Assembly (NCBI GenBank): GCA_964590575.1
Contig: CAZPWM010000012.1
Coordinates: forward strand, 17,993 to 53,451
From: an uncultured archaeon
GTDB lineage: Archaea; Asgardarchaeota; Thorarchaeia; Thorarchaeales; Thorarchaeaceae
Length of the DNA: 35,459 nucleotides
Direction: 5' to 3'
Shown: piece by piece, positions 7,801-22,461 of the stretch
How positions within the stretch are numbered: position 1 is the stretch's first letter
How the letters are laid out: every line of letters begins with the position of its first letter
The notes under the pieces: model-generated
The model's database searches: none
Seen by the model: only the letters and a program-made list of their open reading frames with translations
Told to the model about the DNA's origin: nothing
Program-made: the position numbers and the translations under genes

Positions 7801-10800
7801 TGTCAAGCTGCCCGTCAAGAGTACCATTCATGTTAGTGGATGGTAGCAGAGGGTTAGTGCCTAGGTATTCTATCTCAACAAAGTCATCCAGCTGGTCTCC
7901 ATCAGTGTCCTGAATGTTGATGTCGGTGCCATAGAATAACTCCTCGTTATCTAGGAGTCCATCACCATCACTGTCATTCGATAACGGGTCTGAAAGGTAG
8001 ACGAGTACCTCCATTCCATCTCCGATATTGTCGTTGTCGCTATCAAAATCCCCGGGGTTCGTTTCATAGATGTAAACCTCATCCCCATTTGTCAGCGAAT
8101 CACCATCACTGTCAATCATGTAATCCGTGTGGGTTCCATTATACCACATGTTGTTGGGGTCGGTGAGGGTCTGCTTGATCTCTACCCAGTCAGACAGCAA
8201 GTCTGAATCAGTGTCGTTGTTGAGAGGGTTAGTGAAGTAGTCGTTAATTTCCTCTCCATCCAATAGACCGTCCTCGTCGCAGTCATCATTTAACGGGGAT
8301 GTGCCGTAGACGTACTCCTCAGCATCGTCCAATCCATCGGAATCACTGTCGGCTTCAAATGGTGAGGTCTCGCCAACGTTCACAACACCGTTCGCATTGA
8401 CATCCTCTCCACGTTCTCCGAGAAGCGGTTCATAGATGCCATTGAGGTTTATGTCATTCCACCCATCGTACAATGTGTCTCCGTCGCTGTCCGGATTTGT
8501 AGCATTGAGACCAACATCAATCTCTAGTCCATCTCGGATGCGGTCTCCATCAGTGTCCCAGAGAGTGACATTAGTGTTGTAGGTCCGCAGTTCCTCTATG
8601 TTCGTGAGACCGTCATTGTCTTGGTCATCCTGTCCATCGAGAATGCCATCATCGTCATCATCGTTGTCAGTAGGGTCTGTGTGGGTGTAGTGTACTTCTT
8701 CACCGTCAGTTAATTGATCTAAGTCAGTGTCTGCAGCCAATGGGTCGCAGCCATTCTCCTGTTCCTCTACATTGGTCAGGTCATCGTTGTCCGGGTCCTC
8801 CTCCCCATCGAAGACGCCGTTATCGTTCGTGTCGTTGTAGAGTGGGTCGGTCCCGGTCATCTCGACCTCGAACCAGTTCTCGAGGGAGTCACCATCCTCA
8901 TCGTCATGATAGTCCGATATGAAGTCATTATCTGTGTCACTGTCATTGTGTAGCGTGTGCGTGATGTAGAGCTCGACTCCATTACTCAACCCATCACCGT
9001 CAAAGTCCTCATCATAGTCAGTGATACCATTATCGTTGCTATCCTCATCGTTGGGATCTGTGAGCAGGATTAATACCTCGTCTCCATCTTTTACTTTATC
9101 TCCATCAGTGTCCGGATTTCTAGGATGTGTGAATGTCACATACAACTCTTCATAATTAGTAAGTCTGTCGAGGTCGCTGTCTTCAAGATCATCTGTAAGG
9201 GGCAACCCACCAGAATCTTTCAAAGTAGGATTCGTGCGCGTTAAGTAAATCTCTTGATAGTTAGTGAGAGTATCATTATCATAGTCATAGTTTCCATCCA
9301 AGATCGTAGCATTGAAGGTATGGGGGTTTGTTGCATTCCAGAAGTGTGGAGCACCACGATACTTCACTTCATCTGGGTCGCGAATCAAATCAAAGTCAGA
9401 GTCAACTAGCGTAGCATTTGTTTTATACGTGAAGACCTCCAAGCCATCTCCCAACGTATCCCCGTCTGTGTCACTGTTGGTCACGTTTGTGAAATATACG
9501 TAACATTCTAGATAGTCATTGAGATTATCAAGGTCGGTGTCAGCAGAGTTGGGATCAGATTTCCAGACATTGACTTCCAGTCCATCTGAAATATTATCAG
9601 AATCAGTGTCGTTGTTTAACGGGTCCGTGAAGTAGGTATTGACCTCTGCCCCATCGCTTAACGTGTCATCGTCACTGTCACTATCTAACACACCTGTGCC
9701 ATAAATGACGTATTCGTCATAGTCTGAAAGCCCATCACCATCACCATCAGCCTTGAGTGGATCTGAGTGGACAATCATCACCTCTTCGTAATCCGTTAGT
9801 TTGTCATTATCTGTGTCTTCGTTGAGCGGCGATGTTTTGCTGATCTTCACTTCATACCCATCATTCAAAAGGTCATCATCACTGTCAGGGTCGTATAATC
9901 CAGTCCCGAGCTGAATCTCTTTCCAGTTTGCGAGGTTGTCACCATCTTGGTCATCATAATAGTCTGTTATGGAGTCTCCGTCAGTGTCCACATCATTGGG
10001 ATCTGTCTTGGACTGGCGGACCTCCTGGATGTTCGTGAGTCCATCCCCGTCGTTGTCATCTTGCGCATCATTGATATTATCTCCGTCGCTGTCAGGATCA
10101 GTGGGCAGGGTGAGAGTGACGTTGTTCTCCTCATAGTCAGTAAGCGAGTCTCCGTCAGTGTCTGCCTGATTTGGATTAGTACCGAGGTATATCTCTTGCC
10201 AATCTGTGAGTTTGTCTGAGTCAGTATCGGCTAAGTTGGGGTCAGTGCCATGAGTGATGACCTCTGCAAAGTCAGAGAGTTTGTCGCCATCTGAGTCCGC
10301 TTTGAGAGGGTTTGTTCCATAGGTGAGGACCTCTTGCCCATCACTCAAATTGTCATTGTCGGTGTCAGAGTCATTGTAGAGCGTACCCTCCATGATGATC
10401 TCGCGAGCATCTGCGAGTCCATCTTTGTCAAAGTCTCTACCATAGGTGGACACGGCACCGAAGTTCGTGCCGAAGGCGAACTCATCTCCTCCGAAGTTGT
10501 CGAGGTCGCCAAAAGCCAAAGCACCAGTGAACCCATTAGCAGTGAGCTGGTTGACCCTCCATCCTGTGGAGTTGTACGTCGTGAGAGTGTTGGGAGTTCC
10601 CACGAGCACCTGTGCATTGGTAGTGGCTCCGATATTGGGGAACCGTATATCGTTTGGTACGCCGCCCAACGTCTTGTTCCATGACAACACTCCTACTGAG
10701 GTGTAGACACGAAGTTGATTGGACGCTGTACCAAGCGCGAACTCATACCTCCCACCAGTGACAAGGTCTCCGACGCGAAGGGCAGAGATACTACTAGCGA

Positions 10801-11638
10801 GCTCGAGTTTGAATGCAAGCGTGCCTGTGTCGTACCAGACATTTAGTGTCCCGTTGCTGTTCCCATAGAGCACATCCCAGTTCCCAGCAGTGGTTAGGTC
10901 TCCCATGGCTACGACATTGATTGCAGTGGGACTTGTTTTCTCGAACACCATAGTACCAGTGTCCTGTAAGAGGGTGAACAGTCTTCCCTCAGAGGCCACT
11001 ACTACCTCAGTTCGAGCGTCAGCATCAATGTCTCCCACAGCCAGCAAGCGGACTCTTCCATTGCTCAAATAGCTCCAGAGTGGAGTTGTGTTAATCTCAA
11101 AAGCGTAGACGTAGAAGTCATCACAGCCCACAATGACCTCTTCGAACGCATCGCCATCGAGATTACCCCCAACAACAGCATAGACTGCCTCTGGGAGAGA
11201 CATGTTCATCTGAACCGTCTTATCAGCACCAACTACGAGAATGCCCCGGTCTGTCCCTATGAGCATCTCCTGACCAGTGGCTGCAGTGCCATCGAAGGAG
11301 GTCAGTGCATGTGGTGTCGAGCTAAGTTTCAGTTTCCACAACAATGTGCTATTGTCATCGAACAGGAATAAAGTACCATTGTTCGCAATGACAGCAACCT
11401 CATCTCGCGCATCTGCATCGAAATTATCGACAACAACATCCACAACCTGATTCCCGGTCGTGGTGGACCAAACAAGGGCAATGTCGAATGGTGCGATCTC
11501 AGCGAGAGCGTGTGGAACCTGTTGAACCTGTGGCTTCGTGATTGTCACGGGTTGTATTCCCGTATCTGTCATCTGGAGCTGCAATCCTGCAAGTGCGCAG
11601 ACGACTAGTAGGGCTATGATCACATGATAGGTCTTCAT
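4808..11638 (-). CDS. Giant single-pass cell-surface protein: signal peptide, FG-GAP-type beta-propeller, TSP3-like Ca-binding repeat stalk, TM helix, cytoplasmic beta-sandwich
   Basis: Signal MKTYHVIIALLVVCALAG; blades such as GNLDGDAFEEVIVG, GDIDADARTEVVV, GDLDNFGGDEFAFG; dozens of DxDxDGLxDxxE...TxP units; TM WIFQVAGLLVLAFIAAVGV followed by RKFR; many N-x-S/T sequons; GGAGGA RBS and ATGA overlap with the upstream gene. Confidence 0.9.
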   Translation of the reverse strand: MKTYHVIIALLVVCALAGLQLQMTDTGIQPVTITKPQVQQVPHALAEIAPFDIALVWSTTTGNQVVDVVVDNFDADARDEVAVIANNGTLFLFDDNSTLLWKLKLSSTPHALTSFDGTAATGQEMLIGTDRGILVVGADKTVQMNMSLPEAVYAVVGGNLDGDAFEEVIVGCDDFYVYAFEINTTPLWSYLSNGRVRLLAVGDIDADARTEVVVASEGRLFTLLQDTGTMVFEKTSPTAINVVAMGDLTTAGNWDVLYGNSNGTLNVWYDTGTLAFKLELASSISALRVGDLVTGGRYEFALGTASNQLRVYTSVGVLSWNKTLGGVPNDIRFPNIGATTNAQVLVGTPNTLTTYNSTGWRVNQLTANGFTGALAFGDLDNFGGDEFAFGTNFGAVSTYGRDFDKDGLADAREIIMEGTLYNDSDTDNDNLSDGQEVLTYGTNPLKADSDGDKLSDFAEVITHGTDPNLADTDSDKLTDWQEIYLGTNPNQADTDGDSLTDYEENNVTLTLPTDPDSDGDNINDAQDDNDGDGLTNIQEVRQSKTDPNDVDTDGDSITDYYDDQDGDNLANWKEIQLGTGLYDPDSDDDLLNDGYEVKISKTSPLNEDTDNDKLTDYEEVMIVHSDPLKADGDGDGLSDYDEYVIYGTGVLDSDSDDDTLSDGAEVNTYFTDPLNNDTDSDNISDGLEVNVWKSDPNSADTDLDNLNDYLECYVYFTNVTNSDTDGDTLGDGLEVFTYKTNATLVDSDFDLIRDPDEVKYRGAPHFWNATNPHTFNATILDGNYDYDNDTLTNYQEIYLTRTNPTLKDSGGLPLTDDLEDSDLDRLTNYEELYVTFTHPRNPDTDGDKVKDGDEVLILLTDPNDEDSNDNGITDYDEDFDGDGLSNGVELYITHTLHNDSDTDNDFISDYHDDEDGDSLENWFEVEMTGTDPLYNDTNDNGVFDGEEDPDNDDLTNVEEQENGCDPLAADTDLDQLTDGEEVHYTHTDPTDNDDDDDGILDGQDDQDNDGLTNIEELRTYNTNVTLWDTDGDRIRDGLEIDVGLNATNPDSDGDTLYDGWNDINLNGIYEPLLGERGEDVNANGVVNVGETSPFEADSDSDGLDDAEEYVYGTSPLNDDCDEDGLLDGEEINDYFTNPLNNDTDSDLLSDWVEIKQTLTDPNNMWYNGTHTDYMIDSDGDSLTNGDEVYIYETNPGDFDSDNDNIGDGMEVLVYLSDPLSNDSDGDGLLDNEELFYGTDINIQDTDGDQLDDFVEIEYLGTNPLLPSTNMNGTLDGQLDNDGDGLTNAVEIYGYHSNATAKDTDLDGLNDGFEVYVSGTSPTDQDSDNDQLSDYLEYWIYHTDPSGSDSDSDGLDDYFEVYVSLTSPTSWDSDGDTLSDGDEWNTYGTNPNSIDTDDDLLSDKLELDIGTDPLLNDTDSDTLSDWEEWVLYNTDPTEADVDQDGLNDAEELENGTDWQNWDTDFDTISDGDEVNIYGTSPINDDTDSDNLADADELFNSGTNPLLVDTDGDSIPDDLDDQDADGLTNADEIYLYETNCTLIDTDSDFLSDFDEIFVWGTSPNMFDSDEDGLGDWDELFYWSSNPNDRDSDNDGLEDSEEALTWHTLLNSTDTDSDNLSDYDEIKVFETNPLLYDTDGDSIGDGDELNIYNTSPLREDTDSDKLLDGQEINGFYMTFNISGVVTSRWVYTNPRVSDTDKDSLTDFEEVNMTHTDPTLYSTQGNLISDADWDIDGDLLTNQQEIRLTKTNPRLFDSDSDGKSDGADDEDRDLLTNYWECVLTLTDPRNPDSNDNGISDYNDDEDGDTITNGEECKIYHTDPRNRDSDHDGLYDNEEIDDWGTDPLNKDSDFDGLEDGPEVNDWGTMPDSNDTDLDWLSDYEEVILTGTDPTTNMTYGTTLDRDYDSDNDGLSNWDELRIYHTLPNDDDFDNDDLKDGLEIFLGTNINGTDSDFDQLTDGEEYLLYNTDPLLPDSDLDGLSDYEEVIIYETNPNVEDTDEDNISDYDEVFGVNPLGIPTNPLREDGDFDGLSDYEELFVTPYSDPTKTDSDQDGLGDFLEVTEYLTQPMNNDTDSDMLSDGAEVNEYHTNPLLADSDGDGIDDYTEIMVLGTDPNNPDSDGDGIMDGQDFFPTSHWIFQVAGLLVLAFIAAVGVRKFRDARMTREFVTRAEPASLGLEPGMDIAVEYKIRDGRVIFGVVVRNGADNAMQNVQVILGVPDLTDAIKTQSLGTVEPDTVSIAQIEFELQPGAEGELVGMVEYDNVEGEHMIVNLKPVRIVA
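5260..10435 (-). repeat. Coding degenerate tandem repeats, D(T/S)DxDGLxDxxE(x4-5)T(D/N)P (bacterial thrombospondin type 3-like)
   Basis: Visible in translation over ~1700 aa, as ~22-23 aa units interspersed with ~36 aa units; strongly diverged at DNA level. Confidence 0.9.
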
Positions 11639-12633
11639 GGTGCGGTTCCTCCTATCTCTCTAGGAATTTGCTTCCAAGGTTTCACTTGGAAATAATCAAA
11701 GAAGTCCGCCTCTACAAGACTGACTTCTTCAAATCGTAGTTTCATTTCATTGAATTTCTTAATGATTGGCAGGAGCTGTTCACTGGGATTATCTAAGAAC
11801 AACTTCATTGCATTCCTACCAGCTTGTGCAGTGTATTCGATTCCTGGGAGCGATTCCACCCGTTTGATTATCTCCGGTGTTAAAGCATGGAGAACAACAC
11901 GGATGCTCTCCCCTTTTCCAGGGAGTGTCGAGATCAGTTCCTCTGGAGTCCCGAACTGACTCACATTGCCATCCTCTAAAAGGCACACTCGTGTGCAGTA
12001 ATCTACAATCTCTAGGTCATGGCTGATGATTACCATAGTTGTGCCAAGCTCGTAGTTTAGCTCTTTCAGATAGTTTAGCGTTTCATGTCGAAGATGGGCA
12101 TCGAGCCCTGTGGTTGGCTCATCAAGCAAGAGCACTGGCGGGTCATGTATCATACCAAGGCAGATTGACACCCGCTTACGTTCTCCGCCAGATAGTCTAT
12201 CAACTCTCTTGGTTATTAGTTCTTCATCAAATCCTAGGATTGTGAGGACATTTCTAGCCCGTTCTTCAATCTCCTTGGGCCTGAGACCGAACATGCGTCC
12301 GAAGAACTGAGCGTTCTGAAGAGGGTTGAAATCGTAGTAAAGGCTTAGATGTTCCAGCTGAGGGACATAACCTACGAGAAGACTGATCAGCTTAGCTTTC
12401 TTAGTGACATCATACCCACCAACAAAGGCTTGTCCATCAGTAGGACTAATCTGTCCTGTGAGAACTCGGAGTACAGTCGTCTTTCCAGCTCCTGAGGCTC
12501 CGATGATACCAAGGAACTCTTTCTTATTAGCGAAGAATGATGCTCCTTTCAAGGCGAAGAAATCTCCGAAAGCTACCTTGAGATCTATGATGTCAATCTC
12601 TCGATGGGTTTCCTTGACATCAGATTTTCCCAT
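11635..12633 (-). CDS. ABC transporter ATP-binding protein (DrrA/GldA-like ABC-2 exporter type)
   Basis: Walker A GASGAGKT, Q-loop YVPQ, signature LSGGE, Walker B LLLDEPT, H-loop ISHD, small C-terminal domain. ATG 12633 follows GGAGGTG RBS (track start 12642). Confidence 0.92.
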   Translation of the reverse strand: MGKSDVKETHREIDIIDLKVAFGDFFALKGASFFANKKEFLGIIGASGAGKTTVLRVLTGQISPTDGQAFVGGYDVTKKAKLISLLVGYVPQLEHLSLYYDFNPLQNAQFFGRMFGLRPKEIEERARNVLTILGFDEELITKRVDRLSGGERKRVSICLGMIHDPPVLLLDEPTTGLDAHLRHETLNYLKELNYELGTTMVIISHDLEIVDYCTRVCLLEDGNVSQFGTPEELISTLPGKGESIRVVLHALTPEIIKRVESLPGIEYTAQAGRNAMKLFLDNPSEQLLPIIKKFNEMKLRFEEVSLVEADFFDYFQVKPWKQIPREIGGTAP

Positions 12634-12634
12634 T

Positions 12635-15600
12635 TCACACACCTCCTACCTTGTCGCTTACTCGGTCGAACATCTTACGTCCTTCCTCAATGTCTTGCAT
12701 GAGTACGCGTAGTGCTTCTATCTTCTGTATTCGATCAAGATCTTCTCTTTGTATCAGGTCCTCGAGTTGTGTGAAGGCTGCAAGGAGCGCGCTGAGGGTA
12801 TTGTCTATCTCTCGTACTAACCCAGTATCAATCTCTGGGATTCTGAGACGTTTCCTCATTCTTCTACGATTCCAAACCAGAACCCCAATCAATCCGCCGA
12901 AAATCCCAAAAGATGTGAGAAGTGCTAGTTCTGCCATGGTCAGGAATACAAAGGGTGGGGGCGGAGATATTGTGGGTTCAAGCTCAAACAGGTAGAAAGT
13001 AACACTCGCGTAAGTCATGGCGTATTCCTCATCGCCCAAGACTAGGAAAATACCATTGATTCTACCTTCTTTACTCCAAGCACTGGATGTGAACTGTGAT
13101 GAATAGAGTCCATCTTCTACGAACCCTGCAATGAAAAAGGAAAGACTTCCGTTGGGTAGCTCATATGCAATAGCAACACGCAGGTCGTTGACAGGATTTC
13201 CGTCAATATCTGTTAGCTCTAGATTGACATAGACACTCCGACCTGCCTGATAGTACGAAGTGTTTTCCGAGAGGCTTGTTGCGGTGGTCAGAGTGTTTCG
13301 TAATAGGTACTGGTTCAGATTATCGAGCAACATGCTGTTATTGCATTTTACAAGGTTCTTGTTCATAAAGATCTTAGACGAGCCAAATACTGCTAGCTCA
13401 GGGTCTGTATAGTCCAGTAATATAACACTATTACCATCGAGTCTGGCATTTGCTTTAGACTGGTTGTTCATGACGTAGGTTCCGCCACCAAGCCAGATAC
13501 TCTCCAGTCCGAATCCTAAGCGAGAGGTTGTAACAATTTCTGTAGTATTCTCTTTGCTATGACTCCCATGTAAATAATAACCATACTCCATCAAGAGTGG
13601 ATTGAGTGCTGTGATGTTTGCATTATCATCATTGTCACCTAAAATAACGAGCGTGCCTCCGCCCTCGGAGAATTCCCTGAGAATCTCGATTTCTGTTGAG
13701 TTGTACTCCTTAGTTGGAGCTATGATAAAGACTGTTGAGAATGTTGCAAGTAGGTCTGCATCGAGCTCCATTCCTGGTGTTTCTATGAGGTCGAGTCCCA
13801 CATCTGCCATCCTTTTCTTCATGTTCGAGAGACCTGAGAACGTAGTCATTCTGAATGAGTCAAAGAGGCTTGTAAGTGAGCCAAGACTACCAAGGTCATT
13901 GAGACTAAAGCCAGTCAACATAGCTTCTCCACCGCTAGAACTGTCTTCTTGAGCGAGTGGGAATCCTAAACCTCCAGTATCTCCGCCAGTCAAGGAGCCA
14001 GTATCACCGAAACCTCCAGCACCTCCGAGTAGAGATCCAAACCCACCTCCGTGCGAAGTTTCAAGGAGCATCATTGCGCGTGGATATTCCAGAGTCCTTT
14101 CAAGAGTGATATTGGTTGTCCATCCTACCTCGGTTTCAAGCACATAGTCGCATCTATGATACCCATCCATACCAATTGGGGGTGTCAGTAAAAAGAGTGA
14201 GAAGTCATAGAATCCTTCTATTGTTTTAGCACTAGTAAGAGACATATTGCCCCAATCTGAAGCATTTCCACGATTTGAGATTGTGAGATTACCAAGGGAT
14301 TCGGTGGTTGAAAGAACAAAGCTGTAAATTCCAAAGTCTGCTGGAAATCGGATATCAAATGGTGCGAATGGTAGCTGCTTGGGGAATACCGATGTTGATG
14401 ATATTGGGGTGATAATGAAGACATCTCGTAGCAGAAAATCATCTAAAATCCCTACTCCCGATGTAAGAAGTGATGCCACCGGGTTAGATACAAGATTGAC
14501 GATTTGGTCTAGTCCTGTTGAAACCGCCCATGCTGCAGTTCTTACTCCCTCAGTTTCAGGTCGCCAGTCTGTGATTAGCACTTTAGCTTTGAATGGTTCT
14601 AGCACATCATAAGAGAAATACCTCGCGAACAGGGTACCATCATCAGCAGTACCTTCGACTACTAGCATGGCTCCGATAGCTGTTGTGTTCGCTTCTCCAA
14701 TATTCATGATTACTGCTTTCGATTGATACGTCTGACCAACCTGCGCTATCCTTGGAACATCGGCTTCCACGACTATGAGGTCTCCCTGGTCTAAGGCGCC
14801 GGATGGGACATCATATTTCCACATTGCATCTATTGATGCATCAAGAACCGTGCGGTTCTCACCAAAACCCATGGCTATTGTAACATTAGTAAGTTCATCG
14901 ACATCGAGAGTTCCGAAGTCCCATTGCATTGCTAACCCAACATCGCCATCAAAGACGGTGGACCCTGTTAGGTTATTGTCTGAAACATGACTGCCAATAT
15001 TTGACGAGTTTCCTACTTCAAATGAAGAGAGGGGGATGCTTGAGTTCATACCTACATAGAAGTTGCCATAATTCTCTGAGAGCCCATACGCAAACAGCTG
15101 CTGGTTATCAAGAGCGTACTTTCCGTGATCATTCTCACCATCTAGGTAGAGGTCAAGAGAATATGAAACATACAAGCTCACATTCTCTACAGGCTCGCTA
15201 CCAAGGTTGAGGATGAATGGTGTAATTCTAAATGCAGTCAAAGGAAGTGAATCATACGTAGTGAGATTATAGGCTTCGACCAAGAACGTGACATAGACCG
15301 AGTCATTGTTGGACAGCACGCCAATGTAACGATTGTAAGGTACATTATTTGACGACGATACAACCTGATGAAACTCGCTTTTCACATTAAACATCATCAA
15401 ATTTGTTGGGTCCTCATTATTCCACTTGAGAGAGAACATACCCATCATCAAGTGAATCCCCGAGTCCTGTGGATTACGTGTGTCTATTGCAACAAGTGTT
15501 GTTCCGAAACTACTCATCAACATGGTAGTTGATGCATCTGTGCCGCTAGCAGTGATCAAACCGAGTGCTAGGAGCGGCAAACTTGTTGTTCGCGAGTGTG

Positions 15601-17011
15601 GGTCTGCAGGGGTCTGTTGTGTGCTAAAGTAATCAAATGCTGCTTGCAGATTGAGAAGACCTGCGCCTCCATCATTTGCCCCATACCCAATCGGTGTGGC
15701 TGTGTCACGAAGGACATTGGCTAGAGCGATTGGACTTATTCTATCGAATGCTTGCAGTAAAATTGCTGCGGCACCTGCCGTGATGGCTGCAGAAGCTGCT
15801 GTTGTGTCTGCAATGGTATAATTCTCATCGAATGTTTCACCAATAGAACCCCCAAGAAGACCTCCTAGACCACCAAGGCCACCAAGATCACCTAGTCCGA
15901 TATCACCGAAACCAAGACCTCCAAGACCTGCAAATGGTTTGGCTCCCACAACACCAACACCTGGTGCCACTAGGTCTGGTTTGGTCAATAATGAGAGTGA
16001 TGGTCCTCTTCCTGAGAAATCAGGAATCTCCAGCTGTTCAGTGTCATACGCTCCAACACAAAACGCAGCTGCATTTCCACCGGGAGACATGACAGTCAAA
16101 TAGTCTGGGCCGTCATCTCCTGATGCTGCCACAACAAAAATTCCCTTTTTAGCTGCGATTTCAACTGCCTCTGAGACTGCGTCATCTGGTGCACCAAGAG
16201 TGTTGAAAGGCAATAGAATGATATCTGCACCCCTACTGCTTGCCCACTCTATACCTGAGACAATCCAACTTGGAGATGCAAAGAGCCCTCCAAGGGTCAC
16301 TTTCGCAGAGAGTAGTGTTGCACCAGGAGCAATACCAGCATAGACGCCATCAGATGTATTTCCAGAACTGACTGCAATTGATGCTGCATAGGTTCCATGC
16401 CCAATGAGGTCAAGAGGCAATGTGTCAGCTTCCACAAAGGATGCAAAAGCAGCCACGCTGAAATCTGTTTGAAGTGGGTCCACTCCTGTATCAAGGACTG
16501 CAATAACAGTACCAGTGCCATTGTAACCTGCATCCCAGAGGTCCCTTGCACCAATCCTGTCGATAAGCGGGACATAGTCCTCTGATGACGATGCAGCAGT
16601 GGTAGTGGTCTGTACATGTTCTATTGGTGTTATTTCGTTTGACCATATCTTGGTGATAAACTCCTCTTTGGCAAGGTCTACAATGGCTGAGCTCAGCATC
16701 TTTACATGGAGCATGCCTATCGTTTTGAAAGTTTCAATCATCTTGGCAGTCTGGTCTGCAAAAAGAACAGCATTCTTCGCTTTGAACTCGCCTACCTCAT
16801 CGTCATAACCGATTAGTACGTCACGATACTGATCCAAGTAAGTCTGATTGAGTAGTGAATCATCAATCTTGTCCATGGGGTCAGTTACATGGGGGCTGAT
16901 TCCGATAACAGGTTGAACAACAGAAAGTCCACTAACCATGATGATACATACAAGTATGTATGCTACCACCTTCTGGGTCAGATGCATCATTGTTTGTTTC
17001 AGACCTGCCAT
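12635..17011 (-). CDS. Membrane-anchored S8 subtilase homolog, probably catalytically inactive, with GIFT-like domain and C-terminal TM plus helical tail
   Basis: IAVLDTG (Asp), GHGT (His), FSGRGP, KPDLVAPG present; SGTSMA replaced by DTTAAS; GIFT-like segment FSTVFIIAPTKEYNSTEIEILREFSEGGGTLVILGD; TM LALLTSFGIFGGLIGVLVW then NRRRMRKR. Start 17011 preferred (4 nt after the upstream stop) over track start 17062. Confidence 0.85.
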   Translation of the reverse strand: MAGLKQTMMHLTQKVVAYILVCIIMVSGLSVVQPVIGISPHVTDPMDKIDDSLLNQTYLDQYRDVLIGYDDEVGEFKAKNAVLFADQTAKMIETFKTIGMLHVKMLSSAIVDLAKEEFITKIWSNEITPIEHVQTTTTAASSSEDYVPLIDRIGARDLWDAGYNGTGTVIAVLDTGVDPLQTDFSVAAFASFVEADTLPLDLIGHGTYAASIAVSSGNTSDGVYAGIAPGATLLSAKVTLGGLFASPSWIVSGIEWASSRGADIILLPFNTLGAPDDAVSEAVEIAAKKGIFVVAASGDDGPDYLTVMSPGGNAAAFCVGAYDTEQLEIPDFSGRGPSLSLLTKPDLVAPGVGVVGAKPFAGLGGLGFGDIGLGDLGGLGGLGGLLGGSIGETFDENYTIADTTAASAAITAGAAAILLQAFDRISPIALANVLRDTATPIGYGANDGGAGLLNLQAAFDYFSTQQTPADPHSRTTSLPLLALGLITASGTDASTTMLMSSFGTTLVAIDTRNPQDSGIHLMMGMFSLKWNNEDPTNLMMFNVKSEFHQVVSSSNNVPYNRYIGVLSNNDSVYVTFLVEAYNLTTYDSLPLTAFRITPFILNLGSEPVENVSLYVSYSLDLYLDGENDHGKYALDNQQLFAYGLSENYGNFYVGMNSSIPLSSFEVGNSSNIGSHVSDNNLTGSTVFDGDVGLAMQWDFGTLDVDELTNVTIAMGFGENRTVLDASIDAMWKYDVPSGALDQGDLIVVEADVPRIAQVGQTYQSKAVIMNIGEANTTAIGAMLVVEGTADDGTLFARYFSYDVLEPFKAKVLITDWRPETEGVRTAAWAVSTGLDQIVNLVSNPVASLLTSGVGILDDFLLRDVFIITPISSTSVFPKQLPFAPFDIRFPADFGIYSFVLSTTESLGNLTISNRGNASDWGNMSLTSAKTIEGFYDFSLFLLTPPIGMDGYHRCDYVLETEVGWTTNITLERTLEYPRAMMLLETSHGGGFGSLLGGAGGFGDTGSLTGGDTGGLGFPLAQEDSSSGGEAMLTGFSLNDLGSLGSLTSLFDSFRMTTFSGLSNMKKRMADVGLDLIETPGMELDADLLATFSTVFIIAPTKEYNSTEIEILREFSEGGGTLVILGDNDDNANITALNPLLMEYGYYLHGSHSKENTTEIVTTSRLGFGLESIWLGGGTYVMNNQSKANARLDGNSVILLDYTDPELAVFGSSKIFMNKNLVKCNNSMLLDNLNQYLLRNTLTTATSLSENTSYYQAGRSVYVNLELTDIDGNPVNDLRVAIAYELPNGSLSFFIAGFVEDGLYSSQFTSSAWSKEGRINGIFLVLGDEEYAMTYASVTFYLFELEPTISPPPPFVFLTMAELALLTSFGIFGGLIGVLVWNRRRMRKRLRIPEIDTGLVREIDNTLSALLAAFTQLEDLIQREDLDRIQKIEALRVLMQDIEEGRKMFDRVSDKVGGV

Positions 17012-17015
17012 CGTA

Positions 17016-18695
17016 TCACTTCTCAATTGTACCTTGAATAAGACCTCGAGTAATGGCAACATAGTAGTCTACCATGTCCGCAACCGACTTAGTCTTCACA
17101 ATCTTTACTTTGATGTTTTGCTCCTTCAGAGCAGTGACGCATCTCTCAGCAATCACTTCTAATGGCTCATCTGTGAACATCTTCAGGAGTTCTCCTCTCT
17201 GTAGCACAAAACGAACTCCTTTGACCTGCTCTAGTGTCTTGCGGGCTCTTGGGTCCACCTCTTCAAGCACGACCCCCACAGCAAATCCTCTTGAGGGCAT
17301 CGATTCTTTCAATGTGGCTGGACTTCCAAACGCTACAAGACTCTTACCCCGCATGAACACTGCTACCTTATCACAAAACTCAGCCTCTACGGGATAGTGC
17401 GTAATGACAATTATCGATGTACCATATTCCTGGTTGATATATGAAAGATAACTCCAGAGCTCATACCTGTTGTCAGGGTCAAGCCCTGAAGTTGGCTCAT
17501 CCATGAGGAGAACCTTGGGCTTGTGTGCCAAAGCTATGGCAATAGAAACTCTTCTCTGTTGCCCACCGCTTAGCTCCTTTGTGGGGCTGTTTCCTTTCTC
17601 GAGGACTCCAAAGTCTCTGAGGAGGGTCTTTCCTCTCTGAATCAATTGCCACTCAGGAATGTCATACTGCTTTCCAAATGCGATTATGTTCTCGAGAGGT
17701 GTAAAGGTCTCATACATATATGACAAGTCTTGAGGACAGTATCCAAAGAAGTGACGAACTTTCTGGGTCTGTTTCGAGTCAATTCCGGCAATTCTTGCTA
17801 CGCCAGTACTTGGAATATCGCCAATCAATGCTTTCACGGTCGTTGATTTACCTGCTCCAGACTCGCCGATGATGGCTAGCATCTCACCCTCGCGAATGGA
17901 GAACGAAACATTCTCGATGAGCTTCTGACCGCTTTTGACCGTCACTGTCAGATTTCTGGCTGCGAGCACATCTCTGTATTCAGGAGCTTGTTTCCAGGCA
18001 TAAGGCATTATGTAGACCTTGGTAGCTAAAACAGTGAGGTTTGGATTGTAGCTTGGACCAATTAGAAGCTGCGGCTGTGCAACCATGTAGATTTTGGGAT
18101 CTCCGACCTCTTCCTCTGGAGCAACTCGGACGTCAAGAGTCCCCTCAGGAAGTATGGGAGCTGGTCTTGTAGAAGCACCCACAATCGTACCTTTGATCAT
18201 AATCATAGTCTTGTCAGAGCCTCTGCGGCCCCAAACCGTGCAGGCCACTTCTTGACTCTTCATCTTCTCCAGATCTTTCACTGCTTGTTGGAGGTCACGG
18301 CCATCATAGTATAGGTCGTCTGCCATGTTTCGCTTCAGGTAGTTCTGAACCGTGATTTGTGTGGCTGCTACGTCATCCTGACCTGATCCCTCACCACCTA
18401 TTGTTAGTACCTTATCTAGTTCTCCTGCTCGTTGTCTGCGAAGATCCTCCTCTACATATACTGCGATCCTTCGTGTTAGGACTCCTTTCTTGACCTTCAA
18501 GACTCGACCTTTGAACTTCACTTCCTTACCAGATGAAGTCAACTTACCTTCAACTTCACAGTGTAGCTCACGGGTTTGTCGTGTGATGCACCAATCAATG
18601 GCATCACCTATTCGTGCTCCAGAAAAGTAAGCTTCTTCAACAAAGACTGGTTTCTCCTTTTCAGATGCACCCATTTGGTCTGTTTTTTGAATCAT
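17016..18695 (-). CDS. ABC transporter ATP-binding protein with ~240-aa duplicated N-terminal extension
   Basis: GESGAGKS, YCPQ, LSGGQ, LLMDEPT, ITHY all intact; GGTGA RBS upstream. Confidence 0.92.
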   Translation of the reverse strand: MIQKTDQMGASEKEKPVFVEEAYFSGARIGDAIDWCITRQTRELHCEVEGKLTSSGKEVKFKGRVLKVKKGVLTRRIAVYVEEDLRRQRAGELDKVLTIGGEGSGQDDVAATQITVQNYLKRNMADDLYYDGRDLQQAVKDLEKMKSQEVACTVWGRRGSDKTMIMIKGTIVGASTRPAPILPEGTLDVRVAPEEEVGDPKIYMVAQPQLLIGPSYNPNLTVLATKVYIMPYAWKQAPEYRDVLAARNLTVTVKSGQKLIENVSFSIREGEMLAIIGESGAGKSTTVKALIGDIPSTGVARIAGIDSKQTQKVRHFFGYCPQDLSYMYETFTPLENIIAFGKQYDIPEWQLIQRGKTLLRDFGVLEKGNSPTKELSGGQQRRVSIAIALAHKPKVLLMDEPTSGLDPDNRYELWSYLSYINQEYGTSIIVITHYPVEAEFCDKVAVFMRGKSLVAFGSPATLKESMPSRGFAVGVVLEEVDPRARKTLEQVKGVRFVLQRGELLKMFTDEPLEVIAERCVTALKEQNIKVKIVKTKSVADMVDYYVAITRGLIQGTIEK

Positions 18696-18706
18696 CGTGA
18701 TATCAC

Positions 18707-19885
18707 CTAACCCAGTGTTGGTTTTCTGGAGAATATGAAAGTGGCAGCTAGGATTGCTACAGCTGAGAATCCAAATAATATGAGAACCCTATCTATTACC
18801 TCTAGAATTGAAAGCCCTTTGAATGCTGTGTCTATGAGAAGGTTAAGTCCCTGGTTCATTGGGAGTATTCTATCCAAAACTCCGACATTGAGAAAGAATC
18901 CTGACAGAATTAAGGTTCCAAATAGAACAAAGAGGAACATCTGATTTGCTTGTAATCTCGTGTTTGCAACAGACGAGATCAAAATTCCTGTAGCTGATCC
19001 AGTTAGTGAGCTTAAGCTCATAATTATCACAAGGGATATGAAACTTGTATTGAGTGTGAGATTAAACGCTAGGACCCATAATGTGACCAACAACAACGAC
19101 TGGAAGAACCCAATAATCACATATCCAATTACTTTAGCAACAACGACCTCCAGTCTACTGGTTGGTGTGAGCAGCATTCGACGGAGAGGCGTATCGCCTA
19201 CTATTGATTGAGCTGAAGTCATGGCAATTCCAAGATAGCTTGAGAAAATCACAATGAAACCACCAAACACAGTTACCAAATATCCTCCTTCCGGAGTGAA
19301 CTCAATAACCATACTCGGAAAAATCTCAGAACGAATCCAGAGCTTTGATACTCTAAAAAAGATTGTTCCTGCTTGAATAATTCCCTGAATAGACGCAGAT
19401 CCTAACAGGTTGTTTCCATCATAGTGAACTTCGAGATATGTTGGGAAGTTATCTGTGAGGTTCGCCTCAAAGCCATCAGGAATAACGATGTATGCATCTA
19501 TCAGTTGTTCATACAATGCTCGATATGCATCAGCCGTACTATTGTATATGGTGACATTTGCCATTTCTTCATAAAACGCAGTTAGATTCTCAGAGAGGTC
19601 TTCTGCCCCGTAATATCCACTCGTAGAGTCTAAATCTACAATACCAAGTTTGACACTGCTCTCAGTGGTTGTTACATTATCACCACCACCACCCATGCCT
19701 GTGGATCCGCCAAGAGACATTCCTCCCAAACTACTTGATTCTGTAACATACCAGAGCATACCAATGAGTGCTGCAGGCAACATAAAAATCAGGAGGAGGG
19801 CGACCTTGTCTTTGACTATCAGTCGAAGTTCTTTCATCACCATGTTTCTAATGCGTCTGGATGGTTTTGTCAGAACTTCTGCCAT
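18707..19885 (-). CDS. ABC-2 type transporter permease
   Basis: MVMKELRLIVKD, TM1, extracytoplasmic domain (LGIVDLD, YIVIPDGF), RRMLLTPTSRLEVVVAK, LSGFF, five further TMs. Confidence 0.9.
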   Translation of the reverse strand: MAEVLTKPSRRIRNMVMKELRLIVKDKVALLLIFMLPAALIGMLWYVTESSSLGGMSLGGSTGMGGGGDNVTTTESSVKLGIVDLDSTSGYYGAEDLSENLTAFYEEMANVTIYNSTADAYRALYEQLIDAYIVIPDGFEANLTDNFPTYLEVHYDGNNLLGSASIQGIIQAGTIFFRVSKLWIRSEIFPSMVIEFTPEGGYLVTVFGGFIVIFSSYLGIAMTSAQSIVGDTPLRRMLLTPTSRLEVVVAKVIGYVIIGFFQSLLLVTLWVLAFNLTLNTSFISLVIIMSLSSLTGSATGILISSVANTRLQANQMFLFVLFGTLILSGFFLNVGVLDRILPMNQGLNLLIDTAFKGLSILEVIDRVLILFGFSAVAILAATFIFSRKPTLG

Positions 19886-20103: not shown

Positions 20104-22461
20104 ATGAATACTTTCTTGAAGAGGTTCCTTGATTTGGCCTATGATAATATTGCTCACTTGAACCGTTTCAGACGAGTAGCTCAAAATCTCAACATAAGAC
20201 TCCCTGAATCACCCATGAATACAAATCGAGAAATAGAGCATCTGAGGGACCAATTCAATGCATTATTCTATCTTGAGGCTGAGCCTTGGATGCTTCCCTC
20301 TTGGGTATCCTTAACCATGAAAGGACTCGACAAGGAAAAGGCCTTGATTACATCTCTGCCAAATAACACGTACCGAAATTGGTCACTGATAGGTGGTGTG
20401 GGGTCAAGGAAATATGGGGTGACTGACTCTCGCGGACTAGTTACTGCTCTTCCAGAATGTGGGTCAATAGATATCTGGGTTCAGGGAACAGACGGTATCA
20501 TTTTCCCAGGATTAATGGGAAAAGATGGTCCGCAATTGAAACTAGTATCAACACAAGATCAGCTCTATGAGTGGAGGACTGATGTTCAATCAGTTGAATT
20601 CCTTAGACTACTCTATCATGTTGAACAGGATGGCGTTGAATACCTCTACAATGAAGTGGTTATGAAAAACATAGCCCTTGAGAAGACTACAATTACTTTC
20701 TACGTAGCTCTAAGACCTATGTCTGTACTTGGCTTTGAACCAATTGAACATATTGAGTTTGATGCCAAAACAAATCAGATATTTGGAAATGGGGTTCTTG
20801 GACTTCATGCTAATACGGCCCCATCAGCAGTATTTCTAGTTGAATCAAATGATGTTTCTATTCCTGAGGTGGTTCAATCCGACAAGAATCGCTACGACTA
20901 CAAGCTAACATCCAAGGAAGGCCTTGGGACTGCAATCTTAAAATTCAGTGTCACTCTCTCACCTGCTGGAACCAAGTCCATTGTCTTTAGCTCACCCCTC
21001 GAGGTCCCTCAAGATGGAGCGTCATTGAGTGGGACTACCCCTAAAAGCACCAATCGCGATAAGACGATTGGTCAGTGGTTTGATTTTGCAGAGAAAAAAT
21101 ATGAGGCAATCTTTCCTGATGAGAAATTGGATGGTGTTCTCTCACAGGCTGCTGTGTCGCTGGCAATTCAATCACATTCCGTTCTCTTCCCTGAGGCATC
21201 AGACGAAACGCCTCTTAATTGGAGAGATCGAATGCGAGTCCTCTATGCGCTTATCAAATCCGGTGGAATTGATGTAGCTAGTCAAATAACCAATAAAGCT
21301 GCACAGATATTTGGAGATTCAGAGGTTTCCCTGGACACTACAATATTTAGCCCACTTCTCTGGGGCCTTCTGCAGCTACAAGGATATTCGATACAGCGAG
21401 AATCCATCCAAGATAATATTGAGTATCTTGCTCAACTTGCTGAGAATTTAGTAGCTTCTTTGGCAGTGGATCGACCCAAGAAGAAGGTGGCTGAACAAAC
21501 AATAGATGAATCGTTGACCAAGGAGATTGAAGACGCCCCTCTTGAACACTACAGTATCTTAGATGATAACATATTGAAGGAGTTTAATGAATTACTCTGG
21601 GACCTCTCAGCCCTTAAGGAAGGTCTCAGTTATTTCGCACTAACGAAAGTAAGCTTGGTTGCAAAAATTAGAGATATACTTCCACTTATCGAGAACCGCG
21701 CGAAGGCGAAATTTGATGAGATTAAGAGAGCACGATGGCCTCGGCCTCAGGATCCACAGATGATTGAAATTGATAAAGCAATCCTCGAAATTTTGACAAG
21801 CATTGTGCAACTCAAAATTAAGGAGTTCGACATGAAGTTCCTTAGGAATCTCTGCAAAAAAGTTTCAGGAAGACGACTTGTTCGCAGTCTTTGGAAAACT
21901 CAAGAACCCACAGAGTTATTCTCTAGCCATCTTGCCTTGAGACTTGCCCAATTTCATGTTTGGGATAATCAGCGTGATGCCGCTGAGCCACTTCTCAGAC
22001 GGGCTCTTGAATTCATATCAGAAGACTCTCTACTCCCAGAGTTCGTGAATCCACGAACCTTTGGAGGTAGTGGAGGCGCTGGATCAAGTGTGATGGCGGC
22101 TGCAGATCTCATTTTACTTTTGAGTGACATGTTGGTACACGAAGACAAGAACAACTTGGTATTTTTAGCTGGTATCCCAAGTGAATGGTATGATTCAACC
22201 AGACCTTTAATCATCAATGGGCTTCACACAAGGTTTGGAAAGACCAGGATTGATATTGGCTTGTCAGCAAATCAACATCAAATTAAAACAGGGATGGAAA
22301 TCCTTCCAGATGAAATTGAGATTCATGTGCCTGAAAGCGTTCCCATTCGGATGGTGAAAGCATATGGTGGGAGCATTGTAGACAGAGCAATGAAAGACCG
22401 GTCACCACACATCAAACTCGTTCCTCATTCGACTGATGTTGTGCTTACCTATCATAGATAG
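20104..22461 (+). CDS. Large hypothetical protein, six-hairpin glycosidase-like architecture
   Basis: N-terminal beta-rich part (YRNWSLIG, DSRGLVT, GSIDIW), helical middle, C-terminal LLPEFVNPRT...MLVHED...LAGIPSEW...GLHTRFG typical of GH65/GH78/GH95-like C-termini. Confidence 0.5.
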   Translation: MNTFLKRFLDLAYDNIAHLNRFRRVAQNLNIRLPESPMNTNREIEHLRDQFNALFYLEAEPWMLPSWVSLTMKGLDKEKALITSLPNNTYRNWSLIGGVGSRKYGVTDSRGLVTALPECGSIDIWVQGTDGIIFPGLMGKDGPQLKLVSTQDQLYEWRTDVQSVEFLRLLYHVEQDGVEYLYNEVVMKNIALEKTTITFYVALRPMSVLGFEPIEHIEFDAKTNQIFGNGVLGLHANTAPSAVFLVESNDVSIPEVVQSDKNRYDYKLTSKEGLGTAILKFSVTLSPAGTKSIVFSSPLEVPQDGASLSGTTPKSTNRDKTIGQWFDFAEKKYEAIFPDEKLDGVLSQAAVSLAIQSHSVLFPEASDETPLNWRDRMRVLYALIKSGGIDVASQITNKAAQIFGDSEVSLDTTIFSPLLWGLLQLQGYSIQRESIQDNIEYLAQLAENLVASLAVDRPKKKVAEQTIDESLTKEIEDAPLEHYSILDDNILKEFNELLWDLSALKEGLSYFALTKVSLVAKIRDILPLIENRAKAKFDEIKRARWPRPQDPQMIEIDKAILEILTSIVQLKIKEFDMKFLRNLCKKVSGRRLVRSLWKTQEPTELFSSHLALRLAQFHVWDNQRDAAEPLLRRALEFISEDSLLPEFVNPRTFGGSGGAGSSVMAAADLILLLSDMLVHEDKNNLVFLAGIPSEWYDSTRPLIINGLHTRFGKTRIDIGLSANQHQIKTGMEILPDEIEIHVPESVPIRMVKAYGGSIVDRAMKDRSPHIKLVPHSTDVVLTYHR

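Follow-up and report, generated by a model that had tools for sequence, protein, structure and literature searches.

The window analysed here is a stretch of 35,459 nucleotides from an uncultured archaeon of the family Thorarchaeaceae (GenBank assembly GCA_964590575.1, contig CAZPWM010000012.1, positions 17,993 to 53,451 of the forward strand), and our subject is a long minus-strand open reading frame (ORF) in it that encodes a surface protein with a subtilase (S8) domain and a GIFT domain. We consider it likely that the S8 domain of this protein is a pseudoprotease and that the protein belongs to a GldAFG-like ABC-2 machine, as a subunit that binds or scaffolds without catalysis. We infer that the domain, judged by its sequence, no longer acts as a serine protease and that it has a binding role. 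The ORF and the positions on which this reading turns are as follows.

12635 to 17062, minus strand: whole ORF of the pseudo-subtilase/GIFT surface protein, 1475 amino acids (aa) counted from the first ATG (protein P0001)
16490 to 16492, minus strand: Asp191 (codon GAT), the catalytic Asp, kept within VLDTG/LDTG
16397 to 16399, minus strand: His222, the catalytic His, kept; GHGT is residues 221-224 at 16391-16402
16202 to 16216, minus strand: LLPFN, residues 283-287, aligned in place of the canonical NLSLG substrate-binding strand
16115 to 16117, minus strand: Asp316 (codon GAT) at the position of the oxyanion-hole Asn, followed by Asp317; ASGD is residues 313-316
15797 to 15799, minus strand: Ala422 (codon GCA) at the position of the nucleophile Ser, within DTTAASAAITAG
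15836 to 15937, minus strand: Gly/Leu-rich loop, residues ~376-409, an insertion that follows the APG strand and precedes the former Ser motif, modelled with low confidence

Because the orthologues are mostly 1446-1461 aa long (a few are shorter, partial sequences), we prefer Met18, at 17011, as the probable true start.

The placement of these residues was derived in three ways. The Pfam profile Peptidase_S8 matches residues 182-462 with 116 bits against a cut-off of 21.8, over profile positions 1-280 of 288. In a phmmer alignment with PDB entry 3afg (Tk-SP), which starts at residue 80, TIADTTAASAAITAG stands opposite TAAPGTAMATPHVAG; the 3afg chain itself shows Ala at the Ser position, which we take to be an S-to-A mutant. 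Finally, a MAFFT alignment with canonical-triad Asgard relatives that carry SGTSMATP gave the same columns. All three agree that Ala422 occupies the Ser column and Asp316 the Asn column, and that LLPFN takes the place of NLSLG. They therefore bear out the initial annotation of the window, which had read Ala at the nucleophile, ASGD for AAGN and LLPFN for NLSLG; the codons and coordinates that it gave for the retained Asp and His hold as well. In addition, Tyr225, the next-but-two residue after His222, stands where canonical enzymes have His.

Orthologues were collected in a search of 5.8 billion clustered proteins, which returned 376 matches; the best 120, which are 54-93% identical over the query region, were used, and all orthologue column counts given below are for the resulting set of 121 sequences. 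The named ones come from Thorarchaeota or related Asgard metagenome-assembled genomes (MAGs) and carry the public label 'S8 family serine peptidase'. An alignment of orthologues had been set beforehand as a check on the Ala substitution, and in it the canonical GTSMA occurs in none of the 121 sequences. The nucleophile column holds Thr in 61, Ala in 50 and Ser in 10, and the residue varies even among sequences that are more than 85% identical. The ten Ser forms read TTSAS and have Asp, not Asn, at the oxyanion position, which is Asp throughout (121/121). Pro285, Phe286 and Asn287 are likewise present in 121/121 each, while the Asp191 column is Asp in 118 sequences (Ala in 1, gaps in 2) and the His222 column is His in 113 (Ser in 5, Pro in 3). 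As the substitutions are found in all 121 orthologues, they are not the product of chance or sequencing error.

To count substitutions, a tree of the 121 orthologues was built without columns 422 and 222, and changes were scored as minimum numbers. Column 422 requires at least 22 changes against a median of 6 over the 315 columns of the S8 domain, and belongs to the 33 columns of that domain that reach this number. Seven positions require no change at all (Asp316, Asp317, Pro285, Phe286, Asn287, Asp419 and Thr421), and Asp191 and His222 require one and two changes, respectively. Among the window gene and eight relatives, codon 422 is GCA, ACT or TCA.

The ratio of non-synonymous to synonymous substitution rates (dN/dS), a check also named in the initial annotation, was calculated pairwise by the Nei-Gojobori method (NG86) for nine genes, leaving out one split gene (L015) and three partial ones (L017-L019). 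Of the eight regions compared, the S8 domain has the lowest median, 0.038; the medians are 0.098 for the prodomain, 0.062 for the cytoplasmic tail and 0.054 over the gene as a whole. Saturation of dS near 2 makes the values rough, yet the direction of the contrast is clear in these sequences. The intact ORF and a purifying selection that is strongest in the S8 domain therefore fit a repurposed domain rather than a decaying one, which is what the initial annotation had argued and what the 121 orthologues also speak for. In one related MAG the orthologue (L015, 4363-8742) is split into two ORFs of 641 and 800 aa, probably through a frameshift or assembly error, given that the contig title states a coverage of ~0.48.

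For the wider family, residues 60-500 were used in a HMMER search of 1.84 billion representatives clustered at 50% identity, which gave 33,912 matches at E <= 0.001; the best 150 of these were mapped onto the query. True substitutions at catalytic positions are present in 38 of the 150, a count that leaves out rows with mere alignment gaps or off-by-one placements. In these 38 rows, the His column holds His (16), Arg (14), Ser (5), Glu (2) or Ile (1), the nucleophile column Gly (13), Ala (12), Thr (5), Ser (3), Asp (1), Phe (1) or gaps (3), and the oxyanion column Asp (33) or Asn (5). The His that follows GHGT is replaced by Tyr, Phe or Trp in all 38 degenerate rows, whereas it is His in 107 of the 112 others. 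Within GTSMATPH, Met has become Ala in 29 rows, Pro has become Ala in 33, and the His has given way to a hydrophobic residue. The strand at 285-287 varies across the 38 rows, the commonest residues at its three positions being Pro/Cys/Ala, Phe/Trp/Ala and Ser/Asp/Thr. As the alignments have it, then, GTSMATPH is x-T-x-A-A-A-A-x in the degenerate clade and the oxyanion Asn is Asp.

In these comparisons, neither neighbouring Thr nor Ser is a credible stand-in for the lost nucleophile. Thr421 corresponds to the usual Thr in GTS, which canonical enzymes keep; the position of Ser424 is Ala in 15 of the 121 orthologues; and the 38 rows of the degenerate clade have no conserved Ser, Thr or Cys that is specific to them.

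The 38 rows form one side of a branch, with a support of 99 in FastTree (150 rows) and an SH-aLRT value of 98 in IQ-TREE (78 rows), and the support is 97 after removal of 17 catalytic-motif columns. Source names were looked up for 20 representatives, and the named clusters are all Asgard (Thorarchaeota, Promethearchaeota, Ranarchaeia, Helarchaeota and Lokiarchaeia). A neighbouring cluster with a canonical triad (P0197) is labelled Odinarchaeia and lies close to the S8-GIFT-Zn-ribbon forms P0152 and P0160. On this tree, the loss of the catalytic Ser motif appears to be a single event dating to the ancestor of the whole degenerate clade, a large group of which every named member is Asgard. The family-specific middle region of the protein (residues 481-1090) was detected in 127 of 400 genomes of the phylum, including 79 of the 85 in the window's own family and 17/19, 5/5, 6/6 and 3/3 in four other genome families; in other genome families this query was rarely or never matched (e.g., 0/31 and 5/135).

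The degenerate clade has a median of 50 residues separating the APG strand from the Thr of the Ser motif, compared with 39 in canonical rows (n = 15 aligned throughout). The Gly/Leu-rich character of the loop at ~376-409 is seen only in the Thorarchaeota subclade. Gly-rich low-complexity sequence occurs in three outside loops in all, namely this one, residues ~1011-1062 of the same protein, and residues ~51-70 of the neighbouring permease (GGMSLGGSTGMGGGGDN, at ~19676-19735 of the window, minus strand). Just ahead of the former Ser motif lies the N-x-S/T sequon Asn414-Tyr-Thr, which is found again across the wider clade in the form ENYT.

The S8 domain is one part of a long, membrane-anchored protein, whose remaining parts were assigned from profiles, hydropathy and AlphaFold2 (AF2) models as follows.

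16913 to 16990, minus strand: hydrophobic segment at the N-terminus, residues ~25-50, either signal peptide or membrane anchor (hydropathy scan)
16568 to 16882, minus strand: prodomain-like unit, residues 61-165, beta-alpha-beta-beta-alpha-beta, followed by a Thr/Ser-rich linker (AF2, Foldseek)
15623 to 16567, minus strand: Peptidase_S8 fold domain, residues 166-480, catalytically degenerate (Pfam, Foldseek)
14795 to 15586, minus strand: beta super-sandwich, residues ~493-756 (VIA-align Z 18-22 over 227-238 residues, root-mean-square deviation (rmsd) 2.6-3.3)
14033 to 14794, minus strand: further beta-rich domains, residues ~757-1010, the last of which aligns with the P-like subdomain region of S1P (AF2, VIA-align)
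13877 to 14032, minus strand: Gly-rich linker, residues ~1011-1062, predicted to be disordered (predicted local distance difference test (pLDDT) <50 at model residues 531-582)
13295 to 13876, minus strand: GIFT domain of the GldG/IFT52/OST48/S1P type, residues ~1063-1256 (Pfam, phmmer, VIA)
12968 to 13294, minus strand: membrane-proximal beta-sandwich, residues ~1257-1365 (AF2 strands)
12872 to 12952, minus strand: C-terminal transmembrane helix, residues ~1371-1397 (hydropathy; the helix that closes the AF2 model)
12638 to 12871, minus strand: cytoplasmic part, residues ~1398-1475, with a basic stop-transfer stretch (NRRRMRKRLR) and a helical tail (sequence)

The AF2 model of residues 60-500 has a pLDDT of 89.6 and a predicted TM-score (pTM) of 0.90, and is weak at the Thr/Ser-rich linker and the loop at ~376-409. 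Its best Foldseek matches are the unprocessed pro-subtilisins 3afg (E 6.5e-32, 442 columns) and 3whi; matches to subtilisins have an E of about 1e-23 and a TMt of about 0.9. The initial annotation had also described an I9-like prodomain. At the level of the fold this stands, by the AF2 model and the Foldseek matches to pro-subtilisins, but a Pfam scan of residues 60-165 at E <= 10 returned no Inhibitor_I9 family and a RecG_N match at chance level, so that we base the assignment on the fold. The model of residues 481-1395 has a pLDDT of 83.4, and the super-sandwich in it resembles the N-terminal domains of glucodextranase, bacterial glucoamylase and cellobiose phosphorylase (VIA-align). The GIFT domain is recognised both by sequence (Pfam IFT52_GIFT, PF23355, 33.7 bits against a cut-off of 27.2; phmmer to IFT52 5fms, E 1.9e-4) and by fold (IFT52, VIA Z 22.5, rmsd 2.1 over 192 residues). 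The ectodomain (12968-16912) holds 24 N-x-S/T sequons compared with 11.2 +/- 3.0 in 1000 shuffles, the maximum of which was 20; 13 of the 24 lie within the beta-sandwich middle region. A Protein Atlas look-up with residues 481-1090 gave best scores of 0.80-0.81, which shuffled sequences also reach, and was left unused.

The pseudo-subtilase gene is the third of five tightly packed genes on the minus strand. The four others are listed here in operon order.

18707 to 19885, minus strand: first gene of the operon, an ABC-2 family permease of 392 aa with six hydrophobic segments (Pfam ABC2_membrane_3, E 1.3e-28)
17016 to 18695, minus strand: ABC ATPase, 559 aa, extended by ~240 aa at its N-terminus (Pfam)
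11635 to 12642, minus strand: second ABC ATPase, 335 aa, with an 8-nucleotide overlap with the stop region of the pseudo-subtilase (Pfam)
4808 to 11638, minus strand: giant type-I surface protein, 2276 aa, last gene of the operon (Pfam, NCBIfam, hydropathy)

The operon encodes two different ATPases for one permease gene. The first of these overlaps the pseudo-subtilase ORF by 47 nucleotides if that ORF begins at its first ATG, and its N-terminal extension has a weak match to the C-terminal domain of the TrmB regulator (27 bits, cut-off 22.2). The giant protein has a signal-like N-terminus, a beta-propeller, at least six TSP3 repeats, one C-terminal membrane helix and a tail of ~125 aa. It scores 371.8 bits against a cut-off of 400 with the NCBIfam model of CglD, a myxobacterial gliding adhesin, and also matches the cohesion protein MtsD; since the CglD match is spread over 13 stretches, we regard it as driven by the repeats. 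Divergent from the operon lies a 785-aa ORF (20104-22461, plus strand) with no Pfam or NCBIfam match, and ORFs of 770-790 aa are found at the same place and in the same orientation in four related loci (L012, L013, L014 and L020).

As far as the contigs reach, the order permease, ATPase, pseudo-subtilase, ATPase, giant protein is consistent in 9/9 related Thorarchaeota loci that contain the whole gene, and all five genes are visible in five of the nine. More widely, a comparison of match coordinates by hand placed the permease and the middle region ~4-5 kb from each other on one contig in 40 of the 51 genomes that hold both and in 6 of 7 genome families. By family, the linked genomes among those holding both number 19/20 (f1), 1/1 (f2), 12/16 (f14), 0/5 (f15), 5/6 (f16), 1/1 (f21) and 2/2 (f22); in f16 the permease and pseudo-subtilase genes are divergently oriented, and some of the 11 unlinked genomes are explained by contig breaks. 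A complex prediction for the ABC-2 permease and residues 1090-1475 scored 0.00, which weighs neither for nor against binding.

Four known systems offer points of comparison. GldG is the extracytoplasmic auxiliary subunit of the GldA/GldF/GldG gliding ABC-2 transporter of Bacteroidota. The Thorarchaeota operon resembles that system, and those of the auxiliary proteins that Pfam calls 'ABC-type uncharacterized transport system', in placing ABC-2 permease and ATPase genes beside a protein that has hydrophobic segments at both ends and a GIFT-bearing outside region. The auxiliary protein of the window differs from GldG in its dead subtilase head and ~500 aa of extra beta-sandwich, and the operon differs in its two ATPases and a giant adhesin-like gene. 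The GIFT domain, the anchors at both ends and the position beside the ABC-2 permease and ATPases fit a GldG-type auxiliary subunit.

Precedent for an S8 pseudoprotease comes from CspC and CspA of Clostridioides difficile, in which restoration of the triad is reported not to have restored activity (PMC7200643). The likeness to our protein lies in a subtilase fold without a working triad that is nonetheless required and conserved, and that senses or binds rather than cuts; Csp homologues with an occasional intact-looking but inactive triad parallel the ten Ser-bearing orthologues described above. CspC and CspA are soluble spore proteins of Firmicutes, unlike the ~1460-aa membrane-anchored archaeal surface protein studied here, with its GIFT domain and its ABC-2 operon. 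The pseudo-subtilase is also no specific relative or member of the Csp families, with 28.4 bits against a cut-off of 675 for NCBIfam CspC_non_triad and 30.7 against 1250 for CspBA. By analogy, CspC and CspA would be its closest functional precedent.

Its architecture can be compared with that of eukaryotic site-1 protease (S1P, MBTPS1; PDB 8uw8, 9csd). As described in PMC11231238, S1P runs from prodomains and an S8 domain through P-like and GIFT subdomains to a membrane helix with a short tail, and has the triad D218/H249/S414 and the oxyanion residue N338. Signal, prodomain, S8, P-like and GIFT domains, membrane helix and tail follow one another in the same order in the pseudo-subtilase, and S1P is the top Foldseek match of its C-terminal 915 aa (E 1.3e-9). 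Residues 479-873 of S1P align to residues 408-776 of the 481-1395 model, that is, to residues ~888-1256 of the protein (Z 18.9, 306 residues, rmsd 5.6), and Pfam MBTPS1_4th scores 35.9 bits against a cut-off of 27 on a relative (P0147). S1P differs in having a working triad and oxyanion Asn where the pseudo-subtilase has Ala422 and Asp316, and the latter has in addition the super-sandwich, the membrane-proximal beta-sandwich and the ABC-2 operon, so that the likeness is one of shared domains and their order. OST48/WBP1, a subunit of the eukaryotic oligosaccharyltransferase (PDB 8b6l_N, 6s7t_G), also shares a GIFT domain, a beta-sandwich and a C-terminal membrane helix in this order, and residues 44-447 of OST48 align with residues ~995-1395 (window 12872-14077) at Z 18.2 over 319 residues with an rmsd of 14.4 Å; because of this high rmsd, the likeness is one of parts and not of their arrangement. 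OST48 is without a protease domain, and we claim no orthology. Among Asgard archaea, homologues of WBP1/OST48 are reported for Heimdallarchaeia only by Eme et al., 2023 (PMC10307638).

Pseudo-subtilases as such are a known kind of protein, to which the Asgard clade, with its architecture and operon, adds a new form. A literature search, with subscription-only journals outside its reach, had among the papers it listed none that describes an Asgard pseudo-subtilase family.

Sedolisins (S53) have an oxyanion Asp, and a Ser nucleophile with Glu in place of His. Chemistry of this kind was considered for the S8 domain and ruled out, the Ser being absent (Ala422) and residue 222 being His rather than Glu.

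Several observations weigh against our reading of the S8 domain as a non-catalytic binding subunit of an ABC-2 machine. Asp191 and His222 are kept in most Thorarchaeota orthologues, half of the orthologues carry Thr, a possible weak nucleophile, at position 422, and Ser is found there in 10 of the 121. The group of 38 rows was delimited on a tree before its support was taken from trees of those very rows, an argument with some circularity, and the saturation of dS leaves the dN/dS values rough. With regard to the ABC-2 machine, the permease match in family f15 lies on another contig than the middle region in 5/5 genomes, including an assembly of 8 contigs, and here the lack of linkage looks real. 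Moreover, PF09822 (ABC_transp_aux, the GldG type) scores 19 bits against a cut-off of 34.7 on the pseudo-subtilase; among 31 relatives scanned, the cut-off is exceeded by two members of the degenerate clade, P0140 (38.7) and P0147 (35.2), and the canonical-triad P0160 falls just short of it (34.2).

The retained residues might mean that the domain is still a hydrolase of a non-canonical type, using Thr or Ser422 as nucleophile or a water activated by His222 and Asp191 together with Asp316. In favour of this are, besides the conservation of Asp191 and His222, the invariance of Asp316 and the presence of Thr or Ser at position 422 in 71 of the 121 orthologues. However, Ala occupies this position in the other close orthologues, and nothing in the many switches at 422 points to selection for a hydroxyl. 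Across the wider clade, Gly or Ala takes the nucleophile position in 25/38 rows and the His is lost in 22/38; replacements also affect the S-L-G strand and, in the Ser helix, Met, Pro and His. Since Csp triads are reported to have stayed inactive when restored (PMC7200643), a triad alone does not predict activity, and we regard a surviving hydrolase as very improbable. An artefact or a decaying gene, whether from a sequencing or assembly error or as a pseudogene, is hardly conceivable: the genome is a 194-contig assembly and the L015 relative has its gene in two pieces, but the 1475-aa ORF of the window is intact, the same substitutions recur in 121 independently assembled orthologues, dN/dS is about 0.05, and the gene is present across nearly the whole of its genome family.

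A structural relic is harder to set aside. In that case the dead S8 domain would be a folding or spacing module of the stalk whose cleft binds nothing, and the function would lie wholly in the GIFT and membrane parts. The pocket residues are indeed not conserved across the wider clade, in which the His column holds five different residues and the 285-287 strand varies widely, and buried former catalytic residues can stay conserved for packing alone. Against this, no other region of the gene is as constrained as the S8 domain, and the seven pocket positions without change within Thorarchaeota contrast with the median of six. Pockets that are frozen within subclades and differ between them are what would be expected of a co-evolving binding specificity, an argument that is suggestive, not decisive. 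On balance, we think a relic unlikely.

As a pseudoprotease with a binding role, the protein might work as follows. Once the Ser motif was lost, the former nucleophile position would have needed only a small residue, and would since have drifted between Ala, Thr and Ser in Thorarchaeota, with the rest of the pocket (Asp191, His222, Pro285-Phe286-Asn287, Asp316-Asp317, Asp419 and Thr421) frozen in this group. The S8 domain, probably with the uncleaved prodomain attached, would form a protein- or ligand-binding head. The prodomain presumably could not be autocleaved, as the initial annotation had proposed, and cleavage in trans by another protease may occur. The head would sit on a glycosylated stalk made up of the beta-sandwich domains, the GIFT domain, the C-terminal membrane helix and the cytoplasmic helical tail, and the whole protein would be the GldG-like extracytoplasmic accessory subunit of the surrounding ABC-2 transporter of one permease and two ATPases. 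This machine would act at the cell surface. What it acts on there may be the giant TSP3/beta-propeller protein of the same operon, an obvious candidate for a binding partner of the head as well.

FtsEX, which drives the dead enzyme EnvC, suggests an analogy for what such a clade may do. One may go further and speculate, with considerable doubt, that the Asgard S8-GIFT membrane proteins, canonical and dead, are the prokaryotic kin of eukaryotic S1P, that their layout predates eukaryotes, and that the dead clade is an offshoot that came to serve as the force-receiving outer subunit of an ABC-2 'mechanotransducer' that handles a giant thrombospondin-repeat adhesin.

The same genome encodes canonical subtilases with all four catalytic motifs at L001 and at L005/L007 (two loci that overlap on one gene), and a 671-aa subtilase on contig 21 also shows all four, counting THGT as the His motif; the canonical motifs are thus read and kept elsewhere by this organism. 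In all, the genome (G000) has eight S8 matches, six of which cluster within ~23 kb of contig 1 (~42900-66100; L001 and L004-L008) and fall on about four genes, at least two with canonical motifs. The 671-aa subtilase (L051, contig 21, 19000-33000; 7525-9537 of the locus, plus strand) has IDSG, THGT, NLSLG, SAGNNG and GTSFAAP, and lies 1.3 kb downstream of an ABC-2 permease (5059-6219, plus strand) that is 41% identical to that of the operon, with an Rce1-like gene on the opposite strand between the two. A GIFT-like tail was not established for this subtilase, a collinear BLASTP segment having an E of 1.5 and a Pfam match being absent.

With respect to expression, five metatranscriptome runs contain 5-8% of the sequence words sampled from the window, and four of these runs yielded 27 short contigs with 85-100% identity to it, although presence in an RNA library does not show transcription. 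In one run (X2), three contigs match without differences, at 12943-13093, 15503-15653 and 18705-18880; codon 422 is spanned by none of the listed RNA contigs with few differences. These matches are at most a hint of expression.

The orthologues are labelled publicly as 'S8 family serine peptidase', and the evidence from their sequences suggests that they do not cut. Protease inventories of Thorarchaeota and other Asgards, on which a protein-degrading lifestyle is based, would be inflated if such proteins are counted. The pseudo-subtilase is among the largest conserved surface proteins of these organisms and is near-universal in its own genome family. Being linked to a giant adhesin-like protein and to an ABC-2 machine that is still uncharacterised, it gives a handle on how the cell surface is built in the closest archaeal kin of eukaryotes. 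Finally, the natural series of Ala, Thr and Ser at the former nucleophile position offers material for the study of pseudoenzyme evolution, and the S1P-like and OST48-like layout raises a testable question on the origin of those eukaryotic proteins.

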